From a virus (taxonomy: Duplodnaviria; Heunggongvirae; Uroviricota; Caudoviricetes): 24,777 bases of DNA. Below are positions 237-14,620 of this stretch, one piece after another. The first letter of the stretch is position 1. Each line of letters begins with the position of its first letter. The DNA lies in the IMG/VR virus record IMGVR_UViG_2778261216_000008, positions 1-24,777 of that record; one strand, written 5' to 3'. The notes beneath the pieces were generated by a model. The model saw nothing but the letters and a program-made list of their open reading frames with translations, was not told where the DNA came from and searched no databases. Position numbers and translations under genes: made by a program.

Positions 237-262
237 AAAAAAACCCGCTCGCAGCGGGTTTA
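237..262 (-). terminator. rho-independent terminator hairpin, U-tract on the minus strand
   Basis: AAAAAAA-CCCGC-tcgca-GCGGG-TTT on plus; on minus the GC stem is followed by 7 T. No plus-strand ORF ends upstream of it. Confidence 0.55.
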
Positions 263-306
263 AGCTGTGTGGCGAAGTAACCACTCTTAACACGATACAA
301 TAATTT

Positions 307-335
307 TTGCGTACGCGTTAGCGCTTTTGTATATT
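307..335 (+). promoter_or_regulatory. candidate sigma70 promoter of the 369-1932 operon
   Basis: TTGCGT (307-312), 17-bp spacer, TATATT (330-335), about 35 nt upstream of the ATG at 369. Confidence 0.4.
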
Positions 336-368
336 CAGCTTAATCCTATGTATTTATGGAAAAATAAG

Positions 369-1400
369 ATGAGCAAGCGTGAAATCAAAACTAAAAAAAT
401 AATCTATAAAGAAGTCACAATGTCAGGTGTGTCAAAGACGCTCCAGTCGATGCTAATGGAACTGCTCAAAAAACACACTAAAGCAGATTCTCGCAAGGAA
501 ATGGTCAACCCAGGAGAGGAAGACTTATTCCGATTAATTAATAAACATGAAGAGTTCCAGGGAATGCTGTTTTGCCAGCTTGTTGCCTTCGAACCAGGCC
601 ATTCTCAACGCTATATACAGCTTAAAAATGATGCTGAATCTTATGAAATAAGATCCGTAACATCAGATGAACTTTCTAAAATGACTGTTGAAGAAGCTGA
701 AGAAGCACGCACAGAGAGGGAACAGGTTGTGCGTGAGTTTATAGATTCAATTCTTTATTTCGGTGTATTTGGTAACAGCATCGTAGTAATGCAATCCAGA
801 TCTCTTACAACAAGAGAACTTGAAACACATCTGAAATGGTTACTTGGCTCTTTAAGCAATTACTTAGGCGCAGAAAACATCTTAAAAGTTTCCGATAAGC
901 CCAAAGAAGAGATCATTGAGGAAGTTCTAAAACGACCTGTAAAATCAGTTTCTATAGGTGCCCCTGTAACTGCCGTTAACGAATTTAGTCAAGGAAGCAA
1001 AAGCCCAGGCTGGGTTCCCGCAGGAACTGCCTCTGAACTCCTTAAAGCTATGTTAGCAGAGAAATGGGAAAGCTTCTTACGTAGTAGCAAGCTTGAAGAT
1101 TGTCTTGATGACGCTAATCTTGAAGTAACGCTGAAAATCACATACAAGAGGAAAACTTCTGATTCAGGAGAAAGGATGTTAAGAAATCTTGTTGACGCTA
1201 CCAGACACTACCCGGATGATGACGTCGTTGTTGAAATGGTTGGCGGGACGCGTTTAACTGGTAAAGAGATTCGTTTATGGAATACTGTTAAACTCACAAC
1301 TTACAATAGCTTAATTGATGAACATGAACTATATGGCCAAATGCATGATTGGATGGTCGCTCTGATCAACAATGGAGAAATAGAAGAGACCGATGAATAG
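369..1400 (+). CDS. hypothetical soluble protein (about 343 aa), first gene of a two-gene cargo operon; no recognisable motif
   Basis: ORF 327..1400 in track; ATG 369 (MSKREIK) chosen, alternatives TTG 327 and ATG 420; charged, helix-rich, no Walker or obvious catalytic motif; AT-rich relative to flanks by eye. Confidence 0.65.
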   Translation: MSKREIKTKKIIYKEVTMSGVSKTLQSMLMELLKKHTKADSRKEMVNPGEEDLFRLINKHEEFQGMLFCQLVAFEPGHSQRYIQLKNDAESYEIRSVTSDELSKMTVEEAEEARTEREQVVREFIDSILYFGVFGNSIVVMQSRSLTTRELETHLKWLLGSLSNYLGAENILKVSDKPKEEIIEEVLKRPVKSVSIGAPVTAVNEFSQGSKSPGWVPAGTASELLKAMLAEKWESFLRSSKLEDCLDDANLEVTLKITYKRKTSDSGERMLRNLVDATRHYPDDDVVVEMVGGTRLTGKEIRLWNTVKLTTYNSLIDEHELYGQMHDWMVALINNGEIEETDE

Positions 1401-1932
1401 AGAGGCTGCTAAGTGCATATCCTACCAACAACCAAGTAGAGCATTCCACTTGGTTGTTGTAGTATTGCTTATGTCTACAGCCTGGTTTATCGCCAATAAG
1501 TACATCATTTTAACATCCATTCCTTGGGGCGTATTAACTATCCTCATCTTACCAATTGCAAGTAGCGCAACCCTGTTTCATAAGTTATCTGAAACCCAAA
1601 AAAACGTTGCTGAGGATTTATCTCGCAATGAACAAAGAAGGTTAACAAGGCTTATTAAAGAAAAAAGCCGGGCAACATTATTCATGCTTACGCTACAAAT
1701 TTCGATAATAATTTTTGTGGCATTGATTAGCCTTGGCAATGAGTCCTCTTTTGTTCAACAGCACATTCATACTATAAGTAAATTCGTTGTTTGTGCTTTG
1801 GTTTTTTCACTATACTCATTAATCCCTGTTTTACTAGGGGTAAAGGAAGTCATTGATTTTGAAGGGTTAATAAAAACACGAAAAACATTAAATAAGCGTA
1901 AAAAATCTGCATTATCCAAGCTTGGGAAGTAA
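1393..1932 (+). CDS. small integral membrane protein (179 aa, about 4 predicted TM segments, basic C-terminal tail)
   Basis: ATG 1393 overlaps the upstream stop (ATGAATAG); hydrophobic stretches LVVVVLLMSTAWFIA, GVLTILILPIASSATLF, LFMLTLQISIIIFVALISL, FVVCALVFSLYSLIPVLLGV. Confidence 0.7.
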   Translation: MNREAAKCISYQQPSRAFHLVVVVLLMSTAWFIANKYIILTSIPWGVLTILILPIASSATLFHKLSETQKNVAEDLSRNEQRRLTRLIKEKSRATLFMLTLQISIIIFVALISLGNESSFVQQHIHTISKFVVCALVFSLYSLIPVLLGVKEVIDFEGLIKTRKTLNKRKKSALSKLGK

Positions 1933-1944
1933 TCCAAGCTTGGG
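1914..1944. repeat. 12-bp direct repeat TCCAAGCTTGGG x2, each with the palindrome CCAAGCTTGG, at the convergent junction with Q
   Basis: Copies at 1914-1925 (inside the end of the membrane-protein gene) and 1933-1944 (between the two convergent stop codons). Confidence 0.5.
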
Positions 1945-1953
1945 TTAGCACTC

Positions 1954-2310
1954 TTAAACCATTCTCAGAACACCATCAATAAAACCTAAAGCAGTTTGCA
2001 ATTCCTTTCTGATCGTACCATCTGAGCATTTCCGCTTCTTTGCAATTGTACGGAGCGAAACCCCAATAACAAAATGTGCGATTATCAGCTCATATTCTTC
2101 AGGCCTATATTTACGCAACCGAGCCACACAACTGTCTATCATAATGCCTTCGTCATCATCACACTGAATCCGGGACTTTTTGCCATGAGGTAAAAGCCCC
2201 TTGAAGCCAGCGGCTACCGGTTGCCAGTCCACTCCGCTATTGTCTGAAGCAGCCCAAGCCCCCCAACGATCCATCACTTCATACATATCACGCATCAACT
2301 TTCTCCACAA
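1954..2310 (-). CDS. Q: late-gene antiterminator Q, QuuD-like small Q family
   Basis: 118 aa; MRDMYEVMDRWGAWAA...AAGFKGL...RIQCDDDE...CSDGTIRKELQTALGFIDGVL resembles DLP12 QuuD as recalled from memory; last gene of the leftward early operon. Confidence 0.7.
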   Translation of the reverse strand: MWRKLMRDMYEVMDRWGAWAASDNSGVDWQPVAAGFKGLLPHGKKSRIQCDDDEGIMIDSCVARLRKYRPEEYELIIAHFVIGVSLRTIAKKRKCSDGTIRKELQTALGFIDGVLRMV

Positions 2311-2312
2311 AA

Positions 2313-3308
2313 TCAGGACAGCACACCAATCGCCAGCGCGCGATCGATAAAACGAAATATCAGCTCCAGTTGGGAACCATACTTCTCTTCAAATGCCACG
2401 GTATCCGCATGCAGTTCGTCATGGTGTTTTCTGCACAAAGGCAACACAAAAAGGTCATGCGCTTTTGTACCCATTCCACCCTGACCATGGCCAATCAGGT
2501 GATGCGGATCGTCGGCTGGCTTACCACAACATGCACACGGCTGCGTCTTAACCCAGCGCGTGTACTTTTCATTAACCCAGCGACGACGTTTGGGGCGTAA
2601 CATAAAAGACTCCGGCGACTCCGGATCCACTTTCAGCGCCAGCACCTTTTTCGCTTTATCCCGGATGATGCTGGTGGCGAGAACCGAAGGCACAAGGTCA
2701 CTTTCCCGGGTAACAGACGGCACAACAGTCTTCGGTAATCTCAGTGCCTTACGGGCTGCACTTTCCGGTAAGGCATCTGCCAGGTCATTACGAACCAGCC
2801 ACCAGCACAGTTCCGGCATTGTCACAACGTGACTGTCATCAAAACCGAGATCCCGGCGCACAACAGACAACACCCAGCGGGCACAGTTATCCGTTGCCAT
2901 TGCTTCCAGCCGTTCCGTGAACTGATCGCGCAGCTGGTTATCGCAGTGCCAGCACAGACGGATTGCGCCCGGCGCGTGCCGCATTGTGGTCATGTTCTCG
3001 CTGTGCCATCCGGAATGAGGCCACTGACAGCCCTTTTCACGAAGTAACCAGCTTTCAAGACATTCCACGCCACCAGCACGACGAATAACTGCCTCATTGC
3101 GGAACACGGCCCGAACGGCAGGATCATCCGCTAACGGTTGTGATGCCGCCGGAACGGCACCACTGGCAAAAGATGAATAGCGTTCCGGCTCAGGCTCCAG
3201 CAGGACACGTCCCTGCATAAACAGGGGCATCAGCTCTGAACCTGGTCTGAACAGTACGATCCCCATTCGCGGGGCAATTTCAGGAGTCAACAATGCTCTC
3301 ACGGTCAC
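2313..3308 (-). CDS. prophage protein with C-terminal Cys/His-rich HNH-like motif (possibly DUF968 family)
   Basis: 331 aa; C-terminus CACCGKPADDPHHLIGHGQGGMGTKAHDLFVLPLCRKHHDELH; GTG start; family assignment from memory only. Confidence 0.55.
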   Translation of the reverse strand: MTVRALLTPEIAPRMGIVLFRPGSELMPLFMQGRVLLEPEPERYSSFASGAVPAASQPLADDPAVRAVFRNEAVIRRAGGVECLESWLLREKGCQWPHSGWHSENMTTMRHAPGAIRLCWHCDNQLRDQFTERLEAMATDNCARWVLSVVRRDLGFDDSHVVTMPELCWWLVRNDLADALPESAARKALRLPKTVVPSVTRESDLVPSVLATSIIRDKAKKVLALKVDPESPESFMLRPKRRRWVNEKYTRWVKTQPCACCGKPADDPHHLIGHGQGGMGTKAHDLFVLPLCRKHHDELHADTVAFEEKYGSQLELIFRFIDRALAIGVLS

Positions 3309-3353
3309 CTCAGCGAACGATATTGCATGAACACAGGAGAAAAAATTCAGCCA

Positions 3354-3611
3354 TCACGCAGTAAACTCCTTCACCAGAGTTTCAAACTGGCTTACCTTGC
3401 CTTCCAGTTCCGCCACGCAATCCACCAGCTCATCCACCGCCTTTTGTGTGCGGTGTTTTGCCTGCAGCAGATCACGAAGCGCCGGAGTAAGCTGCTTGCG
3501 GAGCGTATCCTTTGCCACGCTCATTTTTTCCATCTGTTCAGCACAACGAAGCATCTCCTGCGCCTGGCGACGAAGTTGTTCCGGTGAAACAGTGGCTGTT
3601 CTGTTGTTCAA
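3354..3611 (-). CDS. hypothetical small protein (85 aa, coiled-coil-like)
   Basis: ATG overlaps the DnaB-like stop (ATGA); no recognisable domain. Confidence 0.5.
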   Translation of the reverse strand: MNNRTATVSPEQLRRQAQEMLRCAEQMEKMSVAKDTLRKQLTPALRDLLQAKHRTQKAVDELVDCVAELEGKVSQFETLVKEFTA

Positions 3612-5008
3612 AATAAACGCTCCGTTTTACTACCCGACATGCGGTTATTGCTGTATCTGCGCGGAGTGCCCGGCGTCATGGGAGTGGAAAGAACCCGGGC
3701 ACTCTCCTGGTCCACAGGCAGAAAATGCCCGTTATGAAAACGCCGGTAAATGGTACCCAGCGTGCCATTACGCTGTTTCGTGATGTTGATTTCAGCTATG
3801 CCTCTCGCCTGTGTCTCCGGGTTGTACACCTCATCCCTGTAAAGCATCAGAATGATGTCTGCATCCGCCTCTATTTCCCCTGAGTTTTTCAGGTCCGAGT
3901 TCATGGGGCGTTTATTGGGTCTGGATTCCACACCGCGGGAGAGCTGGCTCAGAGCAATCAGCGGAAAACCGCCGGATTTTGCCAGGCTTTTTAGTCCCTT
4001 TGAGATTTCCCCCACAGCAAGGTCGTGACGCCCCGTGCTGCGGGTTTTAATCAGGCCGAGGTAATCGACCACCACCAGCGCCGTTTCCGGGTGTTTCATC
4101 CGGTGGTGCCTCGTGGTTGCACATATCTCATCAATGGTCAGGTTTGCCTGGTCCACCATCCAGATATTACGCCCCGTCATTCGTCCCACGCCCTGTGAGA
4201 AACGCGCCCAGTCTTCGTCTTCAAAACGGGCAACAGACTTAAGACGGGATACCGGCATTCCCCCGGCAGCAGACACCATACGTTCACCAATCTGAATGTT
4301 CGCCATCTCCATGGTGAACAGAAGCACGCCATGCCCCTGCTCAGTCACCTTGTCGATGATATCCAGCGCAAGTTCGGTTTTCCCCATCGAAGGACGAGCC
4401 GCAATGAATACCAGGTCGCCTGGCTCCATACCGCCCGTTTTTGCGTCCAGTTCATCAATACCGGTCATCAACGCCCTGGATTTCTCCAGTCCCTGATTGC
4501 GGCATTCAACACGGTCGACCACTTCCGGAAGGACATCATCAATGTGAACCGGCTGAATGACGCCCTTTCCGGTCGACAGTGAGGCCATCATGTTCTGCGC
4601 ATCCTTCAGGGCATCCTCGGCTGCTTCACAGGTATACGCATCACGTAAATTCTGTAATGCTTCAGTCAGTGTTTTTTCTGCATCGCGCAGTGCGGCATTA
4701 CGCCGCAACGCTGCGACATAGTGCTCCAGTGAAGACTTCACCCAGGTTTTGCGTCCGGTGTCGGTAATCACCGGGGCAAGTTCCGGCATCTCATTGCACA
4801 GCAGTACGGGGTCAATGACGCCGGATACACGGGCCTGTCTGCAAATTCCCGCGTAAATATCCCGGTACTGTCGTGCAGAAAAAACGTCCGCCGACAATGT
4901 GGCCAGAATATCCATCACTTCCGGATCAGCCCCACGCAGAAAAAACGCACCGATGACAGCTCCTTCCAGGTCATAATTACGCCACGCCGGATTTGTCGGG
5001 TTTGTCAT
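3608..5008 (-). CDS. DnaB-like replicative DNA helicase
   Basis: Walker A ARPSMGKTELALDI plus DnaB-like C-terminal domain; start MTNPTNPAW overlaps the DnaC-like stop (ATGA). Confidence 0.85.
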   Translation of the reverse strand: MTNPTNPAWRNYDLEGAVIGAFFLRGADPEVMDILATLSADVFSARQYRDIYAGICRQARVSGVIDPVLLCNEMPELAPVITDTGRKTWVKSSLEHYVAALRRNAALRDAEKTLTEALQNLRDAYTCEAAEDALKDAQNMMASLSTGKGVIQPVHIDDVLPEVVDRVECRNQGLEKSRALMTGIDELDAKTGGMEPGDLVFIAARPSMGKTELALDIIDKVTEQGHGVLLFTMEMANIQIGERMVSAAGGMPVSRLKSVARFEDEDWARFSQGVGRMTGRNIWMVDQANLTIDEICATTRHHRMKHPETALVVVDYLGLIKTRSTGRHDLAVGEISKGLKSLAKSGGFPLIALSQLSRGVESRPNKRPMNSDLKNSGEIEADADIILMLYRDEVYNPETQARGIAEINITKQRNGTLGTIYRRFHNGHFLPVDQESARVLSTPMTPGTPRRYSNNRMSGSKTERLF

Positions 5009-5895
5009 GCTGCCACACCTCTGATATGCGCACGGTAGCTTTCCCAACCAAACACCAGGCAGTTACGCCCACCATCAGTAACGCGATCCACAATCCGTTC
5101 ACCAATGGATTCCTTAAGCTGTTCAAACGTCAGGTTGCTGATCAAAATTGTCGGTAAAATGCTTTCGTAACGCGCATTTATGATTTCCTGCAGGATGGTT
5201 ATCTCCGCAGGCGTACCGAACTGCACACCAACCTCATCGATGATAAGCAGATCCAGCGATGCAAAATGATTAATCACTTCATCGTCAGTGCGCTCAGAGT
5301 TGTGGCGCCAGGTATTTTTCACCGCACGGGTAAGCCGCATTACATCCGTGATTTCTATGGTTGCCTGGTGGTGGCGAATAATATTTTTTGCCATTGATAC
5401 AGCCAGGTGATTTTTACCGGTACCACAATTGCCAATCATGACCATGCTGGTGCCTGCAGCGAGACATTTCTTCCAGGAAGCGGCATAGCGCTGACAGGCT
5501 TCAAGGTTTTTCTGTGCGTCAGTATTCACCGCCTGATAATTCTCAAACTCACAGTCCTGGAACCGGCGGGCAATACCGGCCTGATCGAGTAATTCACGAA
5601 CCTTCAGGGCGCGTAATTCGTCATACACGCGGTCCAGCTCCTCACTGAGGCAGGACAGGCAACCGGACACCCGTTTGACAGCTTTCCCCCTTACATCCGG
5701 GCCCGTCAGCACATAGCGCGTGTATTTTCCGTGTTTCCCGCAGGACACCGTCTCAGTGCTTTGCACCCAATGCTCACAGCGCCACGGACGCTTTCCGCCA
5801 CGGACAAATGCCAGCTCCTCTTCCAGGTCTGCCTTGCGGTTAAGTAACTGCGCTTTGTCGTGTTGCATGTGTTGTTTGTTCAGGAAATTAGTCAT
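5005..5895 (-). CDS. DnaC-like (IstB-type AAA+) helicase loader
   Basis: Walker A GNCGTGKNHLA, Walker B LLIIDEVG; start MTNFLNKQ after RBS GGGAGGG. Confidence 0.85.
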   Translation of the reverse strand: MTNFLNKQHMQHDKAQLLNRKADLEEELAFVRGGKRPWRCEHWVQSTETVSCGKHGKYTRYVLTGPDVRGKAVKRVSGCLSCLSEELDRVYDELRALKVRELLDQAGIARRFQDCEFENYQAVNTDAQKNLEACQRYAASWKKCLAAGTSMVMIGNCGTGKNHLAVSMAKNIIRHHQATIEITDVMRLTRAVKNTWRHNSERTDDEVINHFASLDLLIIDEVGVQFGTPAEITILQEIINARYESILPTILISNLTFEQLKESIGERIVDRVTDGGRNCLVFGWESYRAHIRGVAA

Positions 5896-5914
5896 TTTCA
5901 CCCTCCCCACAAAA

Positions 5915-6826
5915 TCACCAGTTGAAGTTCGTTGAGCCGTAGTCCTGTTCACTGAATCCCGAGATCGGGAGGCTTTTGCCCCGCCCACCTCCGGGGGCTG
6001 CTGGCTGTTGCCAGGATTCCTCGAAATGACGATCGGGTCCAAAGAACGTCGACGCCTGCTTCACGAACTGGGTACCGGTATTTCCAGAGACACGCACCCA
6101 GGCGGCATAGCGTTTCACACCGTTGAGCATGGTTTCGGGTGTCACACCTTCCCTGATTCGGGCTTTCCAGGCTTTGAAGGCTGCTGACTTGGAATTACCA
6201 CCAGCACGTTTGGGATATTCCTGCCAGGCCTGTTCAAATTCCGGTGAATATTCCTGTCTGGCAGAACGCGCTGGTGCAGACGCGTCAGCGGATGCGCCAA
6301 TATCTTGCGGTTCATGTTTTGAATTTACTGGTGGTTCATGTTTTAAACCTTGTGGATCTGGGGTCAGATTCTGAAGGGTCAAACGCGTATTTTTGCCAGA
6401 ATCTGAAGGGTCAAACACACCTGAACATACAGATTCTGACGGTTCAGATTTTGAAGGTTCAGAATCTGAAGGGTCACGTAATCCTGAAAGTCTGCGCTGC
6501 TGTTTCAGTTCTGCAACCTTATCCCGCTCTGTTCTGGCAAGCAGCTCAAGCCGATCAGCATTCAGATGATAAAGATTGGACGTATTACGGTTACCTTTGC
6601 GGCGTGACTGACGCGTCAGCCAGCCATCAGCCTCCAGTTCGGAGATTGCCGTTCTGACTGTACTTTCTCCCAACCCAAGCTGTCGGCATATGGTTTCAAC
6701 ACCTGGGTAGCACACCCCGTCATCATTCGAATAATCCGCCAAGCGCGCCATAATCATCAGTTTTGCACCTTTGATGCCATATGCTGCACATGCATCCCAG
6801 ACATTACCTAGGATTTTGCTACTCAT
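5915..6826 (-). CDS. replication initiator (lambda O-like) with N-terminal HTH and internal iterons
   Basis: N-terminal HTH-like segment; iteron array inside the coding sequence (Ser/Asp/Pro repeat in the protein); directly upstream of loader and helicase. Confidence 0.7.
   Translation of the reverse strand: MSSKILGNVWDACAAYGIKGAKLMIMARLADYSNDDGVCYPGVETICRQLGLGESTVRTAISELEADGWLTRQSRRKGNRNTSNLYHLNADRLELLARTERDKVAELKQQRRLSGLRDPSDSEPSKSEPSESVCSGVFDPSDSGKNTRLTLQNLTPDPQGLKHEPPVNSKHEPQDIGASADASAPARSARQEYSPEFEQAWQEYPKRAGGNSKSAAFKAWKARIREGVTPETMLNGVKRYAAWVRVSGNTGTQFVKQASTFFGPDRHFEESWQQPAAPGGGRGKSLPISGFSEQDYGSTNFNW
6309..6477. repeat. origin-type iteron array inside the initiator gene
   Basis: GGTTCATGTTTT x2 (6309-6320, 6333-6344); CAGAWTCTGAAGGGTCA x3 (6365-6384, 6397-6416, 6460-6477) plus degenerate copies at 6430-6461. 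Confidence 0.65.
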
Positions 6827-7047
6827 ACGGCACCTCCCAGACGCTTAAACATTTTTCCGGACTGAAACGCCACCAGCGGATAACTCAGGGTATGAGTACG
6901 TCCCTGAACCTGGCAGACAACCTTCTGGCTTTCTGTATTGACCAGGCAAACCCGCAGAACGTGTCCATTGCTGGTGGTGAACCACTGCCCCACACGGGGG
7001 CAATGGTTGTATCGGTGATACAGGAAATTAACGATGTGGCGGATCAT
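6823..7047 (-). CDS. hypothetical small protein (74 aa)
   Basis: ATGA start/stop overlaps on both sides within the operon; no recognisable domain. Confidence 0.45.
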   Translation of the reverse strand: MIRHIVNFLYHRYNHCPRVGQWFTTSNGHVLRVCLVNTESQKVVCQVQGRTHTLSYPLVAFQSGKMFKRLGGAV

Positions 7048-7238
7048 GGACGCACCTCCGCCGTAGTTACGTATTTAACCGGGCTACCTTTCATTGAGAT
7101 GGTTTCACACATCTCTGCCGCTTTCAGTTCTGCCGTTTTTCTGGATTTATAGCGACGGTGCCAGACAGATACATCCGTGCGAACTGATACATCGTTTCTG
7201 TATTCAGTTGTGGAAATAATAATTTCGTAACTAATCAT
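7044..7238 (-). CDS. hypothetical small protein (64 aa)
   Basis: ATG 7238 after RBS GGAGG, overlapping the upstream stop; track ORF 7044..7253 trimmed to this start. Confidence 0.45.
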   Translation of the reverse strand: MISYEIIISTTEYRNDVSVRTDVSVWHRRYKSRKTAELKAAEMCETISMKGSPVKYVTTAEVRP

Positions 7239-7597
7239 GGACGCGCCTCCCACTGATTACGGCGGAAAGCGGTAAGATTCAGGCTGTTCCCTGCCTCATG
7301 GAATGCTTCAATGCAGCTCTCGTAGTACCGCATTGTGCGTAGACTTAACCCAAGCTGAAGCATCATCAGGCCATCAAAGGTGATGTAATAACCACGCAGG
7401 GAGTCACCATAGATGTGATAAGTACCCGGTATGAAATTGCGGGTAAAAAATTCGCGCGAGCAGTTCAGATACTCGATTTTGTCGACGATGTTCTGGTGCA
7501 TGCGCTTGAAATGGCAGGCAACATGCAGGGAGAAAATAACGGCCTTGCCGTTGACGACTTCGATTTTCAGGTATGGGGAAGTTGGGTCTGTAGCCAT
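7235..7597 (-). CDS. Rha-family (Phage_pRha-like) protein, diverged paralogue 2
   Basis: 120 aa from ATG 7597 after conserved GAGGCTGCCATC; GKAVIFSLHVACHFKRMHQNIVDKIEYL and YYITFDGLMMLQLGL parallel the Rha core of the upstream paralogue. Confidence 0.55.
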   Translation of the reverse strand: MATDPTSPYLKIEVVNGKAVIFSLHVACHFKRMHQNIVDKIEYLNCSREFFTRNFIPGTYHIYGDSLRGYYITFDGLMMLQLGLSLRTMRYYESCIEAFHEAGNSLNLTAFRRNQWEARP

Positions 7598-7890
7598 GAT
7601 GGCAGCCTCCGTATGCAATGGATAACTTCCACCACCGGAAACGCCAATTTCGCTGGTGGTGAACTGAGCAGGGTTGGCGTAACCGGCGCATACGGAAACC
7701 GGCGCACCTTTCGGTGCCCCCACCCAGCCCACCATAATTTGGGTATAGCTGAGTTGTAGCAACAAAAAAGACGCTAACGCGCCAATTGTCGCCGTATGCA
7801 ATTCTAGGACGCCAATCCCGGCACCCGTTTTATAAGGTGCCTGAACAGTGTAACGTCCCGGAATGGCAGAATCAATATTCAGGTAGCGGA
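7598..7890 (-). promoter_or_regulatory. structured leader 2 upstream of Rha paralogue 2 (candidate cis-regulatory RNA/attenuator)
   Basis: Shares a 42-nt near-identical 5' block, CCCAAATTATGGTGGG and the RBS block with leader 1; hairpin GGGGCACC-GAAA-GGTGCGCC (7701-7720); GC stem + T6 at about 7764-7783. Confidence 0.5.
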
Positions 7891-8442
7891 TCATAGACGC
7901 ACCTCCTTGTCAGAACCATTCAGCCTGGAATCAACAAGTGCAGCACCAAAAACAGCATCACCTACACGGTCGTACAGTTTGCTGGCCAGCGGAGATTCAA
8001 CAGCCTTAAGCATTGGATAAAGCTGGCTTGTCCAGATTTGATGGATTTCACGCAAATGCAGGTATACGCCTCTGGCGTTTCGTGCGACAGCTGACATATC
8101 AGACGCATCGGCACCTGATAAACTCTTCTCCATCTGGTTAAAGGCATTGATGTATGCCTCTTTGAACCTGGCTGCACGTTTACCAGTGAAGCCCATGGCA
8201 AGAAACGCAAAACCGTCGCGGGTGATTTGATAGCAAGGTAGTTTGCGGCCTGTGCAATCAGTGTAATCACTCACCGAAAAATTGCGGGCAGTGAGTGATG
8301 CGGAACATTCAAGCGTGCGGATCTTTTTCAGTACATCGTCATGACGTTTGGAGAAGAAGTTGGCAACAGCCAGGGATGAAGTAACAGCCTGACCATCAAC
8401 GATGGCAATTTCAGGTTGAGTGAGGGTTGGGATCGTAGCCAT
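7891..8442 (-). CDS. Rha-family (Phage_pRha) regulatory protein, paralogue 1
   Basis: 183 aa from ATG 8442 after RBS AAGAGG; GQAVTSSLAVANFFSKRHDDVLKKIRTLE...YQITRDGFAFLAMGFTGKRAARFKEAYINAFNQME matches the Rha domain pattern. Confidence 0.7.
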   Translation of the reverse strand: MATIPTLTQPEIAIVDGQAVTSSLAVANFFSKRHDDVLKKIRTLECSASLTARNFSVSDYTDCTGRKLPCYQITRDGFAFLAMGFTGKRAARFKEAYINAFNQMEKSLSGADASDMSAVARNARGVYLHLREIHQIWTSQLYPMLKAVESPLASKLYDRVGDAVFGAALVDSRLNGSDKEVRL

Positions 8443-8738
8443 GATGGCAGCCTCTTTGGTGATTTTTAATAACTCACCACCAAGGCTTTCCACGACCTTA
8501 TTGGTGGTGAGACGTACAGGGGTGGAAATACCGGTCACCAAAGAACCCGGCCCAACCGAAGTTGGCCCTGCACGCCCCACCATAATTTGGGCGTAATGCT
8601 GCTCATGACACAAAAAAACCGCAAGAGCGCGGCTGTGCGCTTTGGTGAATTCCGGGTTTCCACGCCCGGCACCCGCTTTATAAGGTGCCTGAACAGTGTA
8701 ACGTCCCGAAATTGAGGAATCAATATTTTGGAGAACAA
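8443..8738 (-). promoter_or_regulatory. structured leader 1 upstream of Rha paralogue 1 (candidate cis-regulatory RNA/attenuator)
   Basis: Hairpin GGCACC-N10-GGTGCC; hairpin GGGCCAAC-UUCG-GUUGGGCC (8549-8568); 11-bp stem CTCACCACCAA/TTGGTGGTGAG (8473-8511); GC stem + T7 (8612-8633). Confidence 0.5.
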
Positions 8739-9563
8739 TCATGCAGCACCCGCCAGTTCTTTATCGTGGGTGAATTCGCCATTCCAGTTTCTCTTCATGG
8801 GTAATGCACCTCTAAGATACTGGCGATAAATCCAGACCGCCCCTTTCTGGAGAAGAACTGGTGTATACGAATAAAACCCTTCTTCATAACCTGAATCGAT
8901 ATAGTGGTGACGTTCGGTCAGATACAGATCTCGGGCATATGCCTTTACACGCCATGCGGGGCTTCGCGATTCAGGACGCTCGTCATAAAGCCAGTTGTGA
9001 GCCTCCAGAAATGCTGTGATACGCTGAACATTTACTCCATTAAGTTGCTTGCAGAACTGAACCGGTGTCATGCCAGGCTGGAATAAATTTTCCAGATGTT
9101 CGATGTATTGGGCCTGACGATGAACGTAACTAATTGCTCTGTTTTTAGCCTCATATTCATCCGCCCAGGCACGGGCAGCAGCAGCCGGATCGCTAAAATC
9201 TGGTAGGGATGTCATTGTGGTAAGACTGTAATTCCCCGTTTTACGAATTGACGGAATTACCTCCGATGTAATCCACCGTTTAAAACGTCTTGCCTGTTTT
9301 TTTCGACTTTTGATAATCAGCGCATAGAGCCCGGATTCATTGACCAGCAAAGGCTTACGTCCCGAACCTAAGTAATCCTTATATTCGGTTTTATCTTCAT
9401 CATCGATGGACTGAAGGGAGATAGCAGTATTTGTCAGCCCCAGCGCGTTACATATATCCACGGCAAAAAACCATGGTGTTGAATCAATGACCACACTACG
9501 AACTGATGACAACAATTCACCAGTGCTTGATTTAAAATCGAAAACTTTGATATTGTTTTTCAC
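8739..9563 (-). CDS. Bro-N domain antirepressor-like protein
   Basis: GTG 9563 after RBS GGAGA; N-terminus KVFDFKSSTGELLSSVRSVVIDSTPWFFAVDICNALGL is Bro-N-like; track ORF trimmed at the upstream stop. Confidence 0.65.
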   Translation of the reverse strand: MKNNIKVFDFKSSTGELLSSVRSVVIDSTPWFFAVDICNALGLTNTAISLQSIDDEDKTEYKDYLGSGRKPLLVNESGLYALIIKSRKKQARRFKRWITSEVIPSIRKTGNYSLTTMTSLPDFSDPAAAARAWADEYEAKNRAISYVHRQAQYIEHLENLFQPGMTPVQFCKQLNGVNVQRITAFLEAHNWLYDERPESRSPAWRVKAYARDLYLTERHHYIDSGYEEGFYSYTPVLLQKGAVWIYRQYLRGALPMKRNWNGEFTHDKELAGAA

Positions 9564-9615
9564 GTAATATCTCCGACGATAAACCCGACTGGCCGGTTTT
9601 CTCTGCCGGCCTTTC

Positions 9616-10323
9616 TTATTTCTGCCAACCAATAACCTGAAATACCCCCATTTTCGGGTAATACCAGCAAGTCCCTCGCGGTTCTGCTTCCTCCATAACC
9701 CGATAAAAAGCAGCCATAAACGGTTCCACAGCAACAATTGCGCGACGAGACAACAATCCATCCGGCCTCATGAACTCATGGGGGTCGGTAGGGATCTGAT
9801 ATGCGTTCACCAGATTGCGGCATTTCGCATCTGACATACCCGTTTTCGCCGCCAGCTGACGATAGCCTGCATAACCATCGCGTATGGCGCCTCTTTTGAT
9901 TTGTTCGACAGTTTCAGTAACGTGGGTGACTTTCTCTTCCACCTGCTCAAGACGTCTTTGTTGGCGAACAGCTTCAAGCGCCATTGCAGCAACCATTTCG
10001 ATCTGGCTCATTGGTTTGCGGATTTGTTCTTCCAGTTCGCGCCAGCGGTCTACCAGACGGGCGGTGAATTCAGGGCAAAGCTGTGCGACAACAATGATGC
10101 TGTCGCGTTTGCCTCGTTCACCTTCGAATACATACGCGCTAGAAAATCGGCGAGGGCCAAGTGATTGTTTATTCTCAATTTCCACAGACTGTGGAAATTG
10201 GATGATTCCCTTTTTAGCCAGTGTTTCAATAGTTCTCTTAACACTATCTGGTCTGCTTCCCACCAGCTCAGCTATCTCAATACTGGTCATGGATGCTTTA
10301 TCGGTAAAAATTGTTGTATTCAC
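9616..10323 (-). CDS. Rha-family N-terminal domain regulatory protein (in the cII position)
   Basis: 235 aa; TSIEIAELVGSRPDSVKRTIETLAKKGII...SIIVVAQLCPEFTARLVDRWRELE is Rha-like; ATG overlaps the cro stop (ATGA). Confidence 0.6.
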   Translation of the reverse strand: MNTTIFTDKASMTSIEIAELVGSRPDSVKRTIETLAKKGIIQFPQSVEIENKQSLGPRRFSSAYVFEGERGKRDSIIVVAQLCPEFTARLVDRWRELEEQIRKPMSQIEMVAAMALEAVRQQRRLEQVEEKVTHVTETVEQIKRGAIRDGYAGYRQLAAKTGMSDAKCRNLVNAYQIPTDPHEFMRPDGLLSRRAIVAVEPFMAAFYRVMEEAEPRGTCWYYPKMGVFQVIGWQK

Positions 10324-10583
10324 TGTTTATCTCCTTCGCACACTCCATCTTCTGTGTGCGCTAAACTTGGGTGTGGGAAAAGCTCCGGTAGATCAGGACG
10401 AAATTCATACGCCTGGACTTTCCCATCGACCGCCTTAACCAGAGACGGAACAAATTCAGGAGAAATTTTTTTCTTCCCATTCAGCCAGTCGCAAATTGTT
10501 GACTGCGCGCGACCACAACGCCTAGCCAGAGCAATCTGGCTTCCCGCAATATCTACAGCCTTGGCTATACCTTCATTTTTCAT
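10320..10583 (-). CDS. cro: Cro-like HTH repressor
   Basis: 87 aa from ATG 10583 after RBS GGAGG; HTH QIALARRCGRAQSTICDWLNGKK; divergent from the CI-like gene. Confidence 0.7.
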   Translation of the reverse strand: MKNEGIAKAVDIAGSQIALARRCGRAQSTICDWLNGKKKISPEFVPSLVKAVDGKVQAYEFRPDLPELFPHPSLAHTEDGVCEGDKQ

Positions 10584-10706
10584 ATCGACCTCCAACCTGA
10601 TTTCATTCACTATAGCGATTGATTAAAGCGATTGCAATGTACGGAAAAGCGGTTTGTGTATATATCGCTAAGGCGATACACTAAAAGGGCAGAAAAAGGA
10701 GGACTT
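10584..10706. promoter_or_regulatory. divergent immunity-switch region (pR-like cro promoter, operator-like dyads, cI upstream region)
   Basis: Minus strand TTGCAA-17 bp-TATAGT (plus 10609-10637); palindrome TATCGC-TAAG-GCGATA at 10663-10678; AGCGATTG direct repeat; motif TATAGCGATTGA at 10611-10622. Confidence 0.55.
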
Positions 10707-13607: not shown

Positions 13608-13796
13608 ATGAGACTGTATTTCACAATAGTAATTTTACTGGCAATTATCGCATGCATTTACGGATTACTCGTTCCGTTCCTTATATCCATGAAGGATACG
13701 ATAGCAGTTACTTCTGGCTTTGCACTGGCGTTTCTGACCCCGCCCTGCATTTATGCCATTTACAAGGGTCTTTCTTTCACTAAGGATAAAAAATGA
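13608..13796 (+). CDS. small membrane protein (62 aa, 2 predicted TM segments)
   Basis: Hydrophobic YFTIVILLAIIACIYGLLVPFLI and SGFALAFLTPPCIYAIY; stop overlaps the SPFH ATG (ATGA); weak RBS. Confidence 0.5.
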   Translation: MRLYFTIVILLAIIACIYGLLVPFLISMKDTIAVTSGFALAFLTPPCIYAIYKGLSFTKDKK

Positions 13797-14620
13797 AAAA
13801 AATTATTTTTGCTTTAGCCATTGTTCTGCCGATCATTGGCCTTGTCGGCTGCGATCGCGTTGAACCCGGTAATGTTGGCATCAAAGTAAATAAACTGGGC
13901 GACGATAAAGGCGTCGGTGAGGTGGTCGGTGTTGGTCGCTACTGGACTGGCTGGAATACTGAAGTTTACATCTTCCCAACCTTCAAACAAATGAAGACCT
14001 ACGATGAGCCGTTCAGCTTCCAGATGAGTGACGGCACAACCATCGGCTATCACATCGGTGTTGCCTACAAAGTTGATCCATCCAAAGTTACCACGGTGTT
14101 TCAGACCTACCGCAAAGGCGTGGATGACATTACCGCCACTGACCTGCGCCAGAAGATCGCCGACGCACTCAATCGACTGGCCAGCAAAATGACCACCGAC
14201 AAATTTATCGACGGCGGCAAGTCTGAACTACTGGATGCCGCACTTAAAGACATTCAGGAAGAGATGACCCCCATCGGCGTTCAGGTAATGAGCCTCTCTT
14301 ATGTAGGTAAACCGGAATACCCGCCAACCGTTATCGACAGCATTAACGCCAAAGTCACGGCAAACCAGAAAACCCTGCAGCGCGAACAGGAAGTCAAGCA
14401 ACGTGAAGCGGAGGCCAACATGCTGCGTGCAGAAGCTGCCGGACAGGCTGATGCCATTCGAACAAAAGCCCTGGCAGAAGCCGATGCCATTCGTTTACGC
14501 GGCGAAGCTCTGCGCCAGAACCCTGGCGTCATGGAGCTGGAAGCCATCAACAAGTGGAACGGTACACTGCCGCAATACATGACCAGTGGTGCCAATACAC
14601 CATTTATCCAGATTAAATAA
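13793..14620 (+). CDS. SPFH/Band-7 (prohibitin-like) domain lipoprotein
   Basis: Signal peptide with lipobox LVGC; SPFH-type core; Ala/Glu/Arg-rich coiled-coil tail (QREAEANMLRAEAAGQADAIRTKALAEADAIRLRGEA). Confidence 0.8.
   Translation: MKKIIFALAIVLPIIGLVGCDRVEPGNVGIKVNKLGDDKGVGEVVGVGRYWTGWNTEVYIFPTFKQMKTYDEPFSFQMSDGTTIGYHIGVAYKVDPSKVTTVFQTYRKGVDDITATDLRQKIADALNRLASKMTTDKFIDGGKSELLDAALKDIQEEMTPIGVQVMSLSYVGKPEYPPTVIDSINAKVTANQKTLQREQEVKQREAEANMLRAEAAGQADAIRTKALAEADAIRLRGEALRQNPGVMELEAINKWNGTLPQYMTSGANTPFIQIK

Follow-up and report, generated by a model that had tools for sequence, protein, structure and literature searches.

A two-gene cargo cassette facing the antiterminator Q of an Stx2 prophage: a probable RexAB-type exclusion system with a RexA-like fold

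The RexAB pair of phage lambda was the first abortive-infection system to be discovered. Here we describe two adjacent genes, A and B, that probably form a system of the same type. They lie in a stretch of DNA of 24,777 nucleotides, IMG/VR record IMGVR_UViG_2778261216_000008, which is called the window in this text, and which belongs to an Stx2 prophage of Escherichia coli integrated at yecE. Gene A encodes a soluble protein of 343 amino acids, and gene B, a membrane protein of 179 amino acids; neither protein is matched by a Pfam family or by a model of PADLOC-DB v2.0.0, and both are of unknown function in PHROGs, where B is assigned to PHROG 16807. We consider it likely that the cassette is a RexAB-type exclusion (abortive-infection) system, composed of a RexA-fold sensor and a four-transmembrane effector, from a sequence family that carries no annotation.

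The lambda proteins (Pfam PF15969/PF15968; RexA structure in PDB 8TWQ) have no detectable sequence similarity to A or B, and they are shorter: RexA has 279 amino acids against 343 for A, and RexB, 144 against 179 for B. The lambda genes belong to the immunity operon, downstream of cI, whereas the pair of the window sits at the junction between Q and the late promoter, and is convergent on Q. RexB and gp31 of the actinobacteriophage Sbash have the topology that is predicted for B, with four transmembrane helices, cytoplasmic termini and a central cytoplasmic loop. In lambda, both genes are needed to exclude a superinfecting phage, a process that involves depolarisation of the membrane, and RexA forms a dimer with non-specific DNA binding.

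Pairs of this kind are also known outside lambda. The actinobacteriophage pairs Sbash gp30/gp31, CarolAnn gp44/gp43, Toast gp42 and Butters gp30/gp31 combine a RexA-like protein of 337-372 amino acids with a four-transmembrane partner. Their hosts are Actinobacteria, they do not occupy a fixed place with respect to the repressor, and the function of their membrane proteins depends critically on the central cytoplasmic loop: in Sbash gp31, the loop mutations R70A and D73A abolish defence (PMC6426596). A DUF4747 motif has been reported for gp30 and for RexA; A has no DUF4747 match in Pfam. Prophage P1 of Pseudomonas putida carries RexABpp (PP_5643/PP_5644), a defence system in which RexApp, about 330 amino acids long and remotely RexA-like according to HHpred and to its structure, binds DNA, while RexBpp, a four-transmembrane protein of about 185 amino acids, is the effector that arrests growth; five Rex-like systems have been described so far (PMC12894663, Sci Rep 2026). 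RexABpp is an experimental precedent: remote Rex-like pairs are real defence systems. Like the pair of the window, it associates a soluble and a four-transmembrane protein in an AT-rich prophage cargo; it is located near a cI-like repressor.

The predicted structure of A links the window to these systems. The AlphaFold2 model, with a predicted local distance difference test (pLDDT) of 74 and a predicted TM-score (pTM) of 0.71, contains, from N- to C-terminus, a domain of sheet plus helices, a second domain of the same composition, and a C-terminal helix. When the model is compared to the PDB with Foldseek, the only matches below 1e-3 are two RexA chains (E 5.7e-5, probability 1.00), and the alignment to RexA spans the whole length. 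The secondary structure appears to fit the split RexA architecture, and both the globular and the dimerisation parts of the RexA-type split fold can be recognised in the model. As modelled, A is thus a cytoplasmic protein with a split two-domain fold of the RexA/RdgC type. RdgC, a recombination-associated DNA-binding ring dimer (PDB 2OWL), is a much weaker match to A than RexA is; it is also a chromosomal housekeeping protein, and has no membrane partner.

The preliminary description of this DNA had given B four hydrophobic segments, and these are found again both by hydropathy, at residues 17-35, 38-56, 96-114 and 132-150, and as long helices in the AlphaFold2 model of B (pLDDT 77.5). Lysines and arginines are abundant in the N-terminus, in the central loop of 39 residues and in the C-terminal tail of 29 residues, a distribution that predicts an N-in/C-in topology. 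As in lambda, then, the gene that comes directly after the soluble one encodes a predicted four-transmembrane protein of the inner membrane, with cytoplasmic termini and central loop. In the family alignment of B (alignment A6), conservation peaks at a PW motif before the second transmembrane segment, in the central loop, at E80-x-R82-R83-L84...K91, and in the helix that follows the fourth segment; this helix is basic in B, and has no counterpart in lambda RexB. The loop motif ExRRL of B is reminiscent of RTRRL in lambda RexB, but the resemblance was rejected as a candidate link since five further members of the RexB family do not keep this motif.

Gene A belongs to a large family. A word-indexed search returned 28 clusters with A as the query and 15 with B, and hmmsearch with a profile of A, run over 1.84 billion representatives, returned 722 clusters (50% identity) at E <= 1e-3, among them 233 at E <= 1e-30. 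The number of clusters, and the existence of full-length homologues down to 23% identity, imply that genes A and B are real genes and not chance open reading frames. The pairing of the two genes was studied in 82 loci: 78 viral contigs with homologues of A, and four further loci (L007-L010). In 80 of these, an open reading frame of the B family lies directly downstream of A on the same strand, and the association persists down to 23% identity in A; of the two exceptions, one is at the end of a contig and the other has a truncated A. The idea that the genes would co-occur as a pair is well borne out.

The genomic contexts of the pair fall mostly into two types. After dereplication of the loci at 85% identity, 33 lineages remain. 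Thirteen of them have a cI-like repressor (HTH_3 plus Peptidase_S24) directly upstream of the pair and on the same strand, which is the cI-rexA-rexB layout of lambda, and two more have such a repressor about 1.1 kilobases upstream; in another thirteen, the pair is tail-to-tail with a PF06530 Q gene, with 17-38 base pairs between the stop codons, as it is in the window. The remaining five lineages hold the pair elsewhere. The preliminary description had compared the cassette to RexA and RexB from its architecture; the fold match of A, the constancy of the pairing and the lineages that occupy the position behind cI all support this comparison.

In Acinetobacter phages, the order is repressor, small open reading frame, A, B. 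One of them, phi1_092021 (PQ859669; L102:3501-5008), has a homologue of A with 33% identity in such an operon, and its record labels this protein ‘DefenseFinder protein’ and names no system; PADLOC v2 gives no match. A newer release of DefenseFinder may already hold a model for the A family, which tempers the novelty of the family. A literature search by the WP accessions of the family returned nothing, and the DefensePredictor paper makes no mention of Rex. Shigella phage SfIV (KC814930; L103:3501-4324) has a homologue of A with 32% identity in the layout of the Q site, next to a B gene truncated by IS1: in this phage, the membrane partner has been knocked out naturally.

PADLOC had been suggested as a means to recognise a catalogued defence protein; besides A and B themselves, a set of 134 diverse members of the A family gives no match in PADLOC or in Pfam. 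The comparison with Kiwa, also suggested at that stage, was equally negative. Kiwa resembles the pair of the window in that it is a membrane-associated defence with a small four-transmembrane protein, KwaA, and a soluble protein of about 310-340 amino acids, KwaB; however, its gene order is reversed, the fold match of A is to RexA, and neither A, B nor the 134 family members are matched by the KwaA or KwaB models of PADLOC or by DUF4868.

Several results weigh against a kinship with RexAB. The global TM-score of Foldseek between A and RexA is low, 0.29/0.35, and the model of A is moderately confident, with pLDDT values of 55-65 across residues 200-280. Such a low global score is what a different orientation of the two domains would be expected to produce; RexA itself is reportedly able to reorient its two domains. 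For B, the 50 best structural matches of the model do not include lambda RexB, and four-helix membrane bundles are generic in any case. A search of BFVD with the B model gives no significant match, and there is a weak match to a 165-residue protein of Sbash (E 0.26, TM-scores 0.53/0.57), which may or may not be gp31. What connects B to RexB is its topology. The location of the pair in the window, outside the immunity operon, next to Q and about 8.7 kilobases from the repressor region, and the promoter-like sites of the region, which are not in excess over shuffled sequence (7 versus 5.4 +/- 2.6), also count on this side.

So do the sequence comparisons, which agree with the preliminary description in finding no similarity to RexAB. 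The alignment of A (alignment A2) compared to the RexA family with hhalign yields a Prob of 0.7%, and alignment A6 of B compared to an alignment of six RexB members, a Prob of 0.3%; hhalign is equally negative when single sequences are used in place of profiles, and hmmsearch between the A and B families and RexA and RexB finds nothing in either direction, and neither do the Pfam models of RexA, RexB and DUF4747, nor the PADLOC models of RexA and RexB, when applied to A and B. The RexA models, which do match lambda RexA in both Pfam and PADLOC, match none of the 134 members of the A family, and a profile search of alignment A2 against the sequences of the PDB returns nothing. The same hhalign set-up, however, gives a Prob of 0.1% when RexA is compared to a homologue of RexApp, a link published with an HHpred probability of 98%. 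Since the set-up misses a published relationship, its negative results mean that a similarity is not detectable here, and not that the proteins are unrelated.

The homologue used in this calibration was found in Pseudomonas sp. 286 (L106:12581-13573, UVIF01000023.1) with a degenerate N-terminal pattern taken from the RexApp primer sequences in the supplement of PMC12894663, and it stands in for PP_5643. It has 330 amino acids, begins with MHRTATFV and ends with ALMV; the locus ends before its B partner is complete. Neither the hidden Markov model of the A family, nor that of RexA, nor hhalign recognises it, and the pair of the window is therefore a third RexA-fold family, outside the families of lambda and P. 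putida. At least three sequence families thus appear to share the RexA-type fold, A by its model and RexApp according to PMC12894663. On the side of the membrane protein, the termini of RexBpp, read from the primers of the paper, are unlike those of B, and a seven-residue fingerprint of RexBpp is present in none of the 79 homologues of B that were scored (0/79). The 25-mers derived from the RexABpp primers are absent from the viral and genome contig collections.

Whatever its function, the cassette is horizontally acquired cargo, as can be seen from its low guanine-plus-cytosine (GC) content, its rarity in E. coli, and the presence of other cargo, or of none, at the same site in related phages. 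Its AT-richness had been noted from the start: the GC content is 0.385 over the cassette (0.398 in gene A, 0.359 in gene B) and about 0.51 in the neighbours, with 0.51 over the early-right region 2313-10600 and 0.55 in the DUF968/HNH gene; at third codon positions (GC3), it is 0.35 in gene A and 0.34 in gene B, versus 0.59 in the DnaB gene. The cassette is present in 14 of 5426 complete E. coli genomes (14/5426), 4261 of which (4261/5426) match some part of the 2.4-kilobase query. The pair is found in Stx2a and Stx2c phages of O157:H7 and of other Shiga toxin-producing E. coli, beside Q and upstream of stx2.

The relatives of the window show where the cargo was inserted, and confirm the earlier view that the interval between Q and the lysis genes is a cargo site. 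In phage PPyecE_EH1910, the same flanks are joined directly and there is no cargo; its homology to the window stops at position 314, which is 15 base pairs from its Q stop. In phage mEp460, as in many prophages of E. coli, a different two-gene pair occupies the same site in the same orientation, and the homology of these phages to the window extends on the left as far as position 333 and on the right from position 1954 on. The Q/leader junction acts as a place where two-gene cargo is swapped.

The alternative pair, A'/B', replaces positions 334-1953 of the window, and is found at L005:1881-3342 in E. coli PS1Thumoskin9 and at L004:1798-2724 in mEp460. Its two genes, at L005:1881-2807 and 2794-3342, overlap, and encode a soluble protein of 308 amino acids and a protein of 182 amino acids with three to four hydrophobic segments. 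Comparisons of this pair with A/B, RexA, Pfam and PADLOC models gave nothing significant, and it may be an analogous system.

If the cassette is an exclusion system, it can be pictured by analogy with the described pairs. A would sense the infecting phage, probably as a dimer that binds DNA non-specifically, and, on infection of the lysogen by another phage, would signal to B and activate it. B, with both termini and a basic central loop predicted in the cytoplasm, would then act on the membrane, depolarising or permeabilising it; the cell would arrest and the infection would be aborted, which would be seen as an exclusion phenotype. The pair is oriented against the lytic genes, and would presumably be expressed in the lysogen, from a promoter of its own.

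The same neighbourhood suggests other roles. The pair could mainly tune the decision of the prophage between lysis and lysogeny, or the expression of late genes and of Stx, rather than exclude phages: binding of A to DNA or to the repressor would bias the switch to lytic growth, as that of RexA does in lambda, or convergent transcription would modulate the read-through of Q. Lambda RexA does act on the bistable switch independently of RexB (bioRxiv 10.1101/2021.04.19.439022; PMC11077077), 26 of the 33 lineages place the pair at a regulatory hub, either beside cI or 17-38 base pairs from the Q stop, and the pair of the window separates Q from the conserved leader and terminator ahead of the late region with the methylase, the tRNAs and stx2. 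However, a pure DNA-binding regulator has no need of the membrane partner that is so strictly co-inherited with A, related phages function with no cargo at the site, and the switch role in lambda coexists with exclusion and does not replace it; we thus hold tuning as the main role to be unlikely. It would be stranger still for the pair to be an accessory to the timing of lysis, made of a holin- or antiholin-like membrane protein and its regulator, even if B is a small protein with multiple transmembrane segments encoded in the interval between Q and lysis: the transcription of the cassette runs counter to that of the late operon, thirteen of the 33 lineages hold the same pair in the immunity operon, B has no holin match in Pfam or PHROGs, and a separate set of holin, lysozyme and spanin genes is present downstream. 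This last explanation is very improbable.

Other alternatives keep the cassette as a prophage-borne module, and change what its proteins do. An inversion of roles has been described for gp30/gp31 of mycobacteriophage Butters (PMC12894663); transposed to the window, A would be the toxic or antiviral effector, and B would restrain it until infection. The present data are silent on which of the two partners is the effector, and the conservation of B in the cytoplasmic loop and in the helix after the fourth transmembrane segment fits either role; but in the systems of lambda, Sbash, CarolAnn and P. putida it is the membrane partner that has the effector role, and we give the inversion little credit. 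Nor do we put much weight on a module of lysogenic conversion or host physiology, be it a factor of membrane stress or persistence or an addiction-type toxin-antitoxin pair, in which a fold like that of RexA would serve a different DNA transaction, as it does in RdgC.

With exclusion as the favoured role, a broader and more tentative reading can be formulated, which we regard as possible but doubtful: A/B would be a large Rex-like family with no model in Pfam or PADLOC, moving between two lambdoid slots, one behind cI and the other tail-to-tail with Q, and its expression at the Q site might be coupled to that of the late and Stx genes. The family would then be far more widespread than lambda RexAB, with at least 722 clusters at 50% identity compared to 36 clusters at 90% identity for the lambda pair. 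In Stx2 phages, convergent transcription could couple a defence pair to late-gene and Shiga-toxin expression; the pair may affect which phages superinfect toxigenic strains, and might affect the expression of late genes and of the toxin. With its hundreds of clusters, and a strictly conserved four-transmembrane partner of a different build, the A family would also offer many natural variants with which to study how a sensor of the RexA type activates its membrane protein, and would supply a missing model for the tools that annotate defence systems. The junction between Q and the leader is, for its part, a practical place to seek further prophage-borne systems of two genes.

The coordinates of the cassette and of the elements that border it are given in Table 1. 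The two reading frames and their overlap, ATGAATAG, which covers the 8 nucleotides 1393-1400, lie exactly where the preliminary description had put them. A longer gene A is conceivable, with a TTG start at position 327; however, the family alignment begins at the N-terminus MSK...KxIxYK, and this supports the start at 369.

Table 1. Position and strand of the features discussed, numbered along the window.
Feature	Position	Strand	Remarks
Gene A	369-1400	+	343 amino acids counted from ATG; proposed sensor or activator
Gene B	1393-1932	+	179 amino acids; proposed membrane effector
Candidate sigma70 promoter	307-335	+	TTGCGT 307-312, 17-nucleotide spacer, TATATT 330-335
12-bp direct repeat TCCAAGCTTGGG	1915-1926 and 1933-1944		Exact; brackets the gene B stop codon at the right cargo junction
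Structured backbone RNA element, about 77 nucleotides	238-314	-	Left cargo junction; strong intrinsic terminator 261->241 followed by T7
Q antiterminator	1954-2310	-	PF06530, E 1e-45

The sigma70 promoter that had been attributed to the cassette did not hold up as a firm assignment: it matches 8 of the 12 consensus positions (8/12), which is under the threshold of the scan, and the region as a whole has no excess of such sites. The motif is kept in a Pantoea locus with 81% identity (L023), and is not kept across the family. A promoter of the cassette is plausible at this place, as a candidate read from the sequence. At the other end of the cassette, each copy of the repeat TCCAAGCTTGGG contains the palindrome CCAAGCTTGG; the repeat could be a scar of recombination, or a weak bidirectional hairpin.

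The stop codon of Q is 21 base pairs from that of gene B, and the cassette and Q therefore converge, in agreement with the orientation described earlier. This Q is a distant relative of Q21 (PDB 6P18, E 1e-3). On the strand of Q, the order is the following: replication genes, DUF968, Q, the antisense cassette, the structured element with its terminator, a reading frame of 65 amino acids, a DNA methylase, three tRNAs, stx2AB and the lysis genes. The whole window is 100% identical to the Stx2c prophage of E. coli 89-3156, and its first 2.4 kilobases are 99.2% identical to the Stx2a phages Stx2a_WGPS2 and Stx2a_1447 (O157:H7).

The structured element, read from 314 to 238, is predicted to form three hairpins, with a fold z-score of -2.5, and has a weak full-length match to the isrK family of small RNAs of Gifsy-1 (RF01394), at 19 bits for a threshold of 50. 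It is conserved both in phages that have the cargo and in phages that do not, and it probably belongs to the leader of the late operon and not to the cassette. It may be a short leader transcript, of the StxS/IsrK type, of the Q-dependent late promoter; this promoter was not located in the region, by eye or by scan.

The reading frame of 65 amino acids (positions 1-114 of the window, - strand, extending past its start; L002:11917-12114) is the first gene past the terminator. It has weak matches to winged-helix proteins (TrmB, E 0.002), and many Stx phages have conserved it ahead of their methylase-tRNA-stx2 region. Further away, a gene for an SPFH-domain protein, at 13793-14620 on the + strand, and several small open reading frames belong to the early-left operon, in the stretch that runs from the repressor region to the integrase, and are possibly further cargo of the prophage. 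Finally, in E. coli OkiPb01677 (NZ_AP042483.1 2160897-2164634), an element of the IS4-like type, ISVsa5, splits a region that otherwise matches at 100%.

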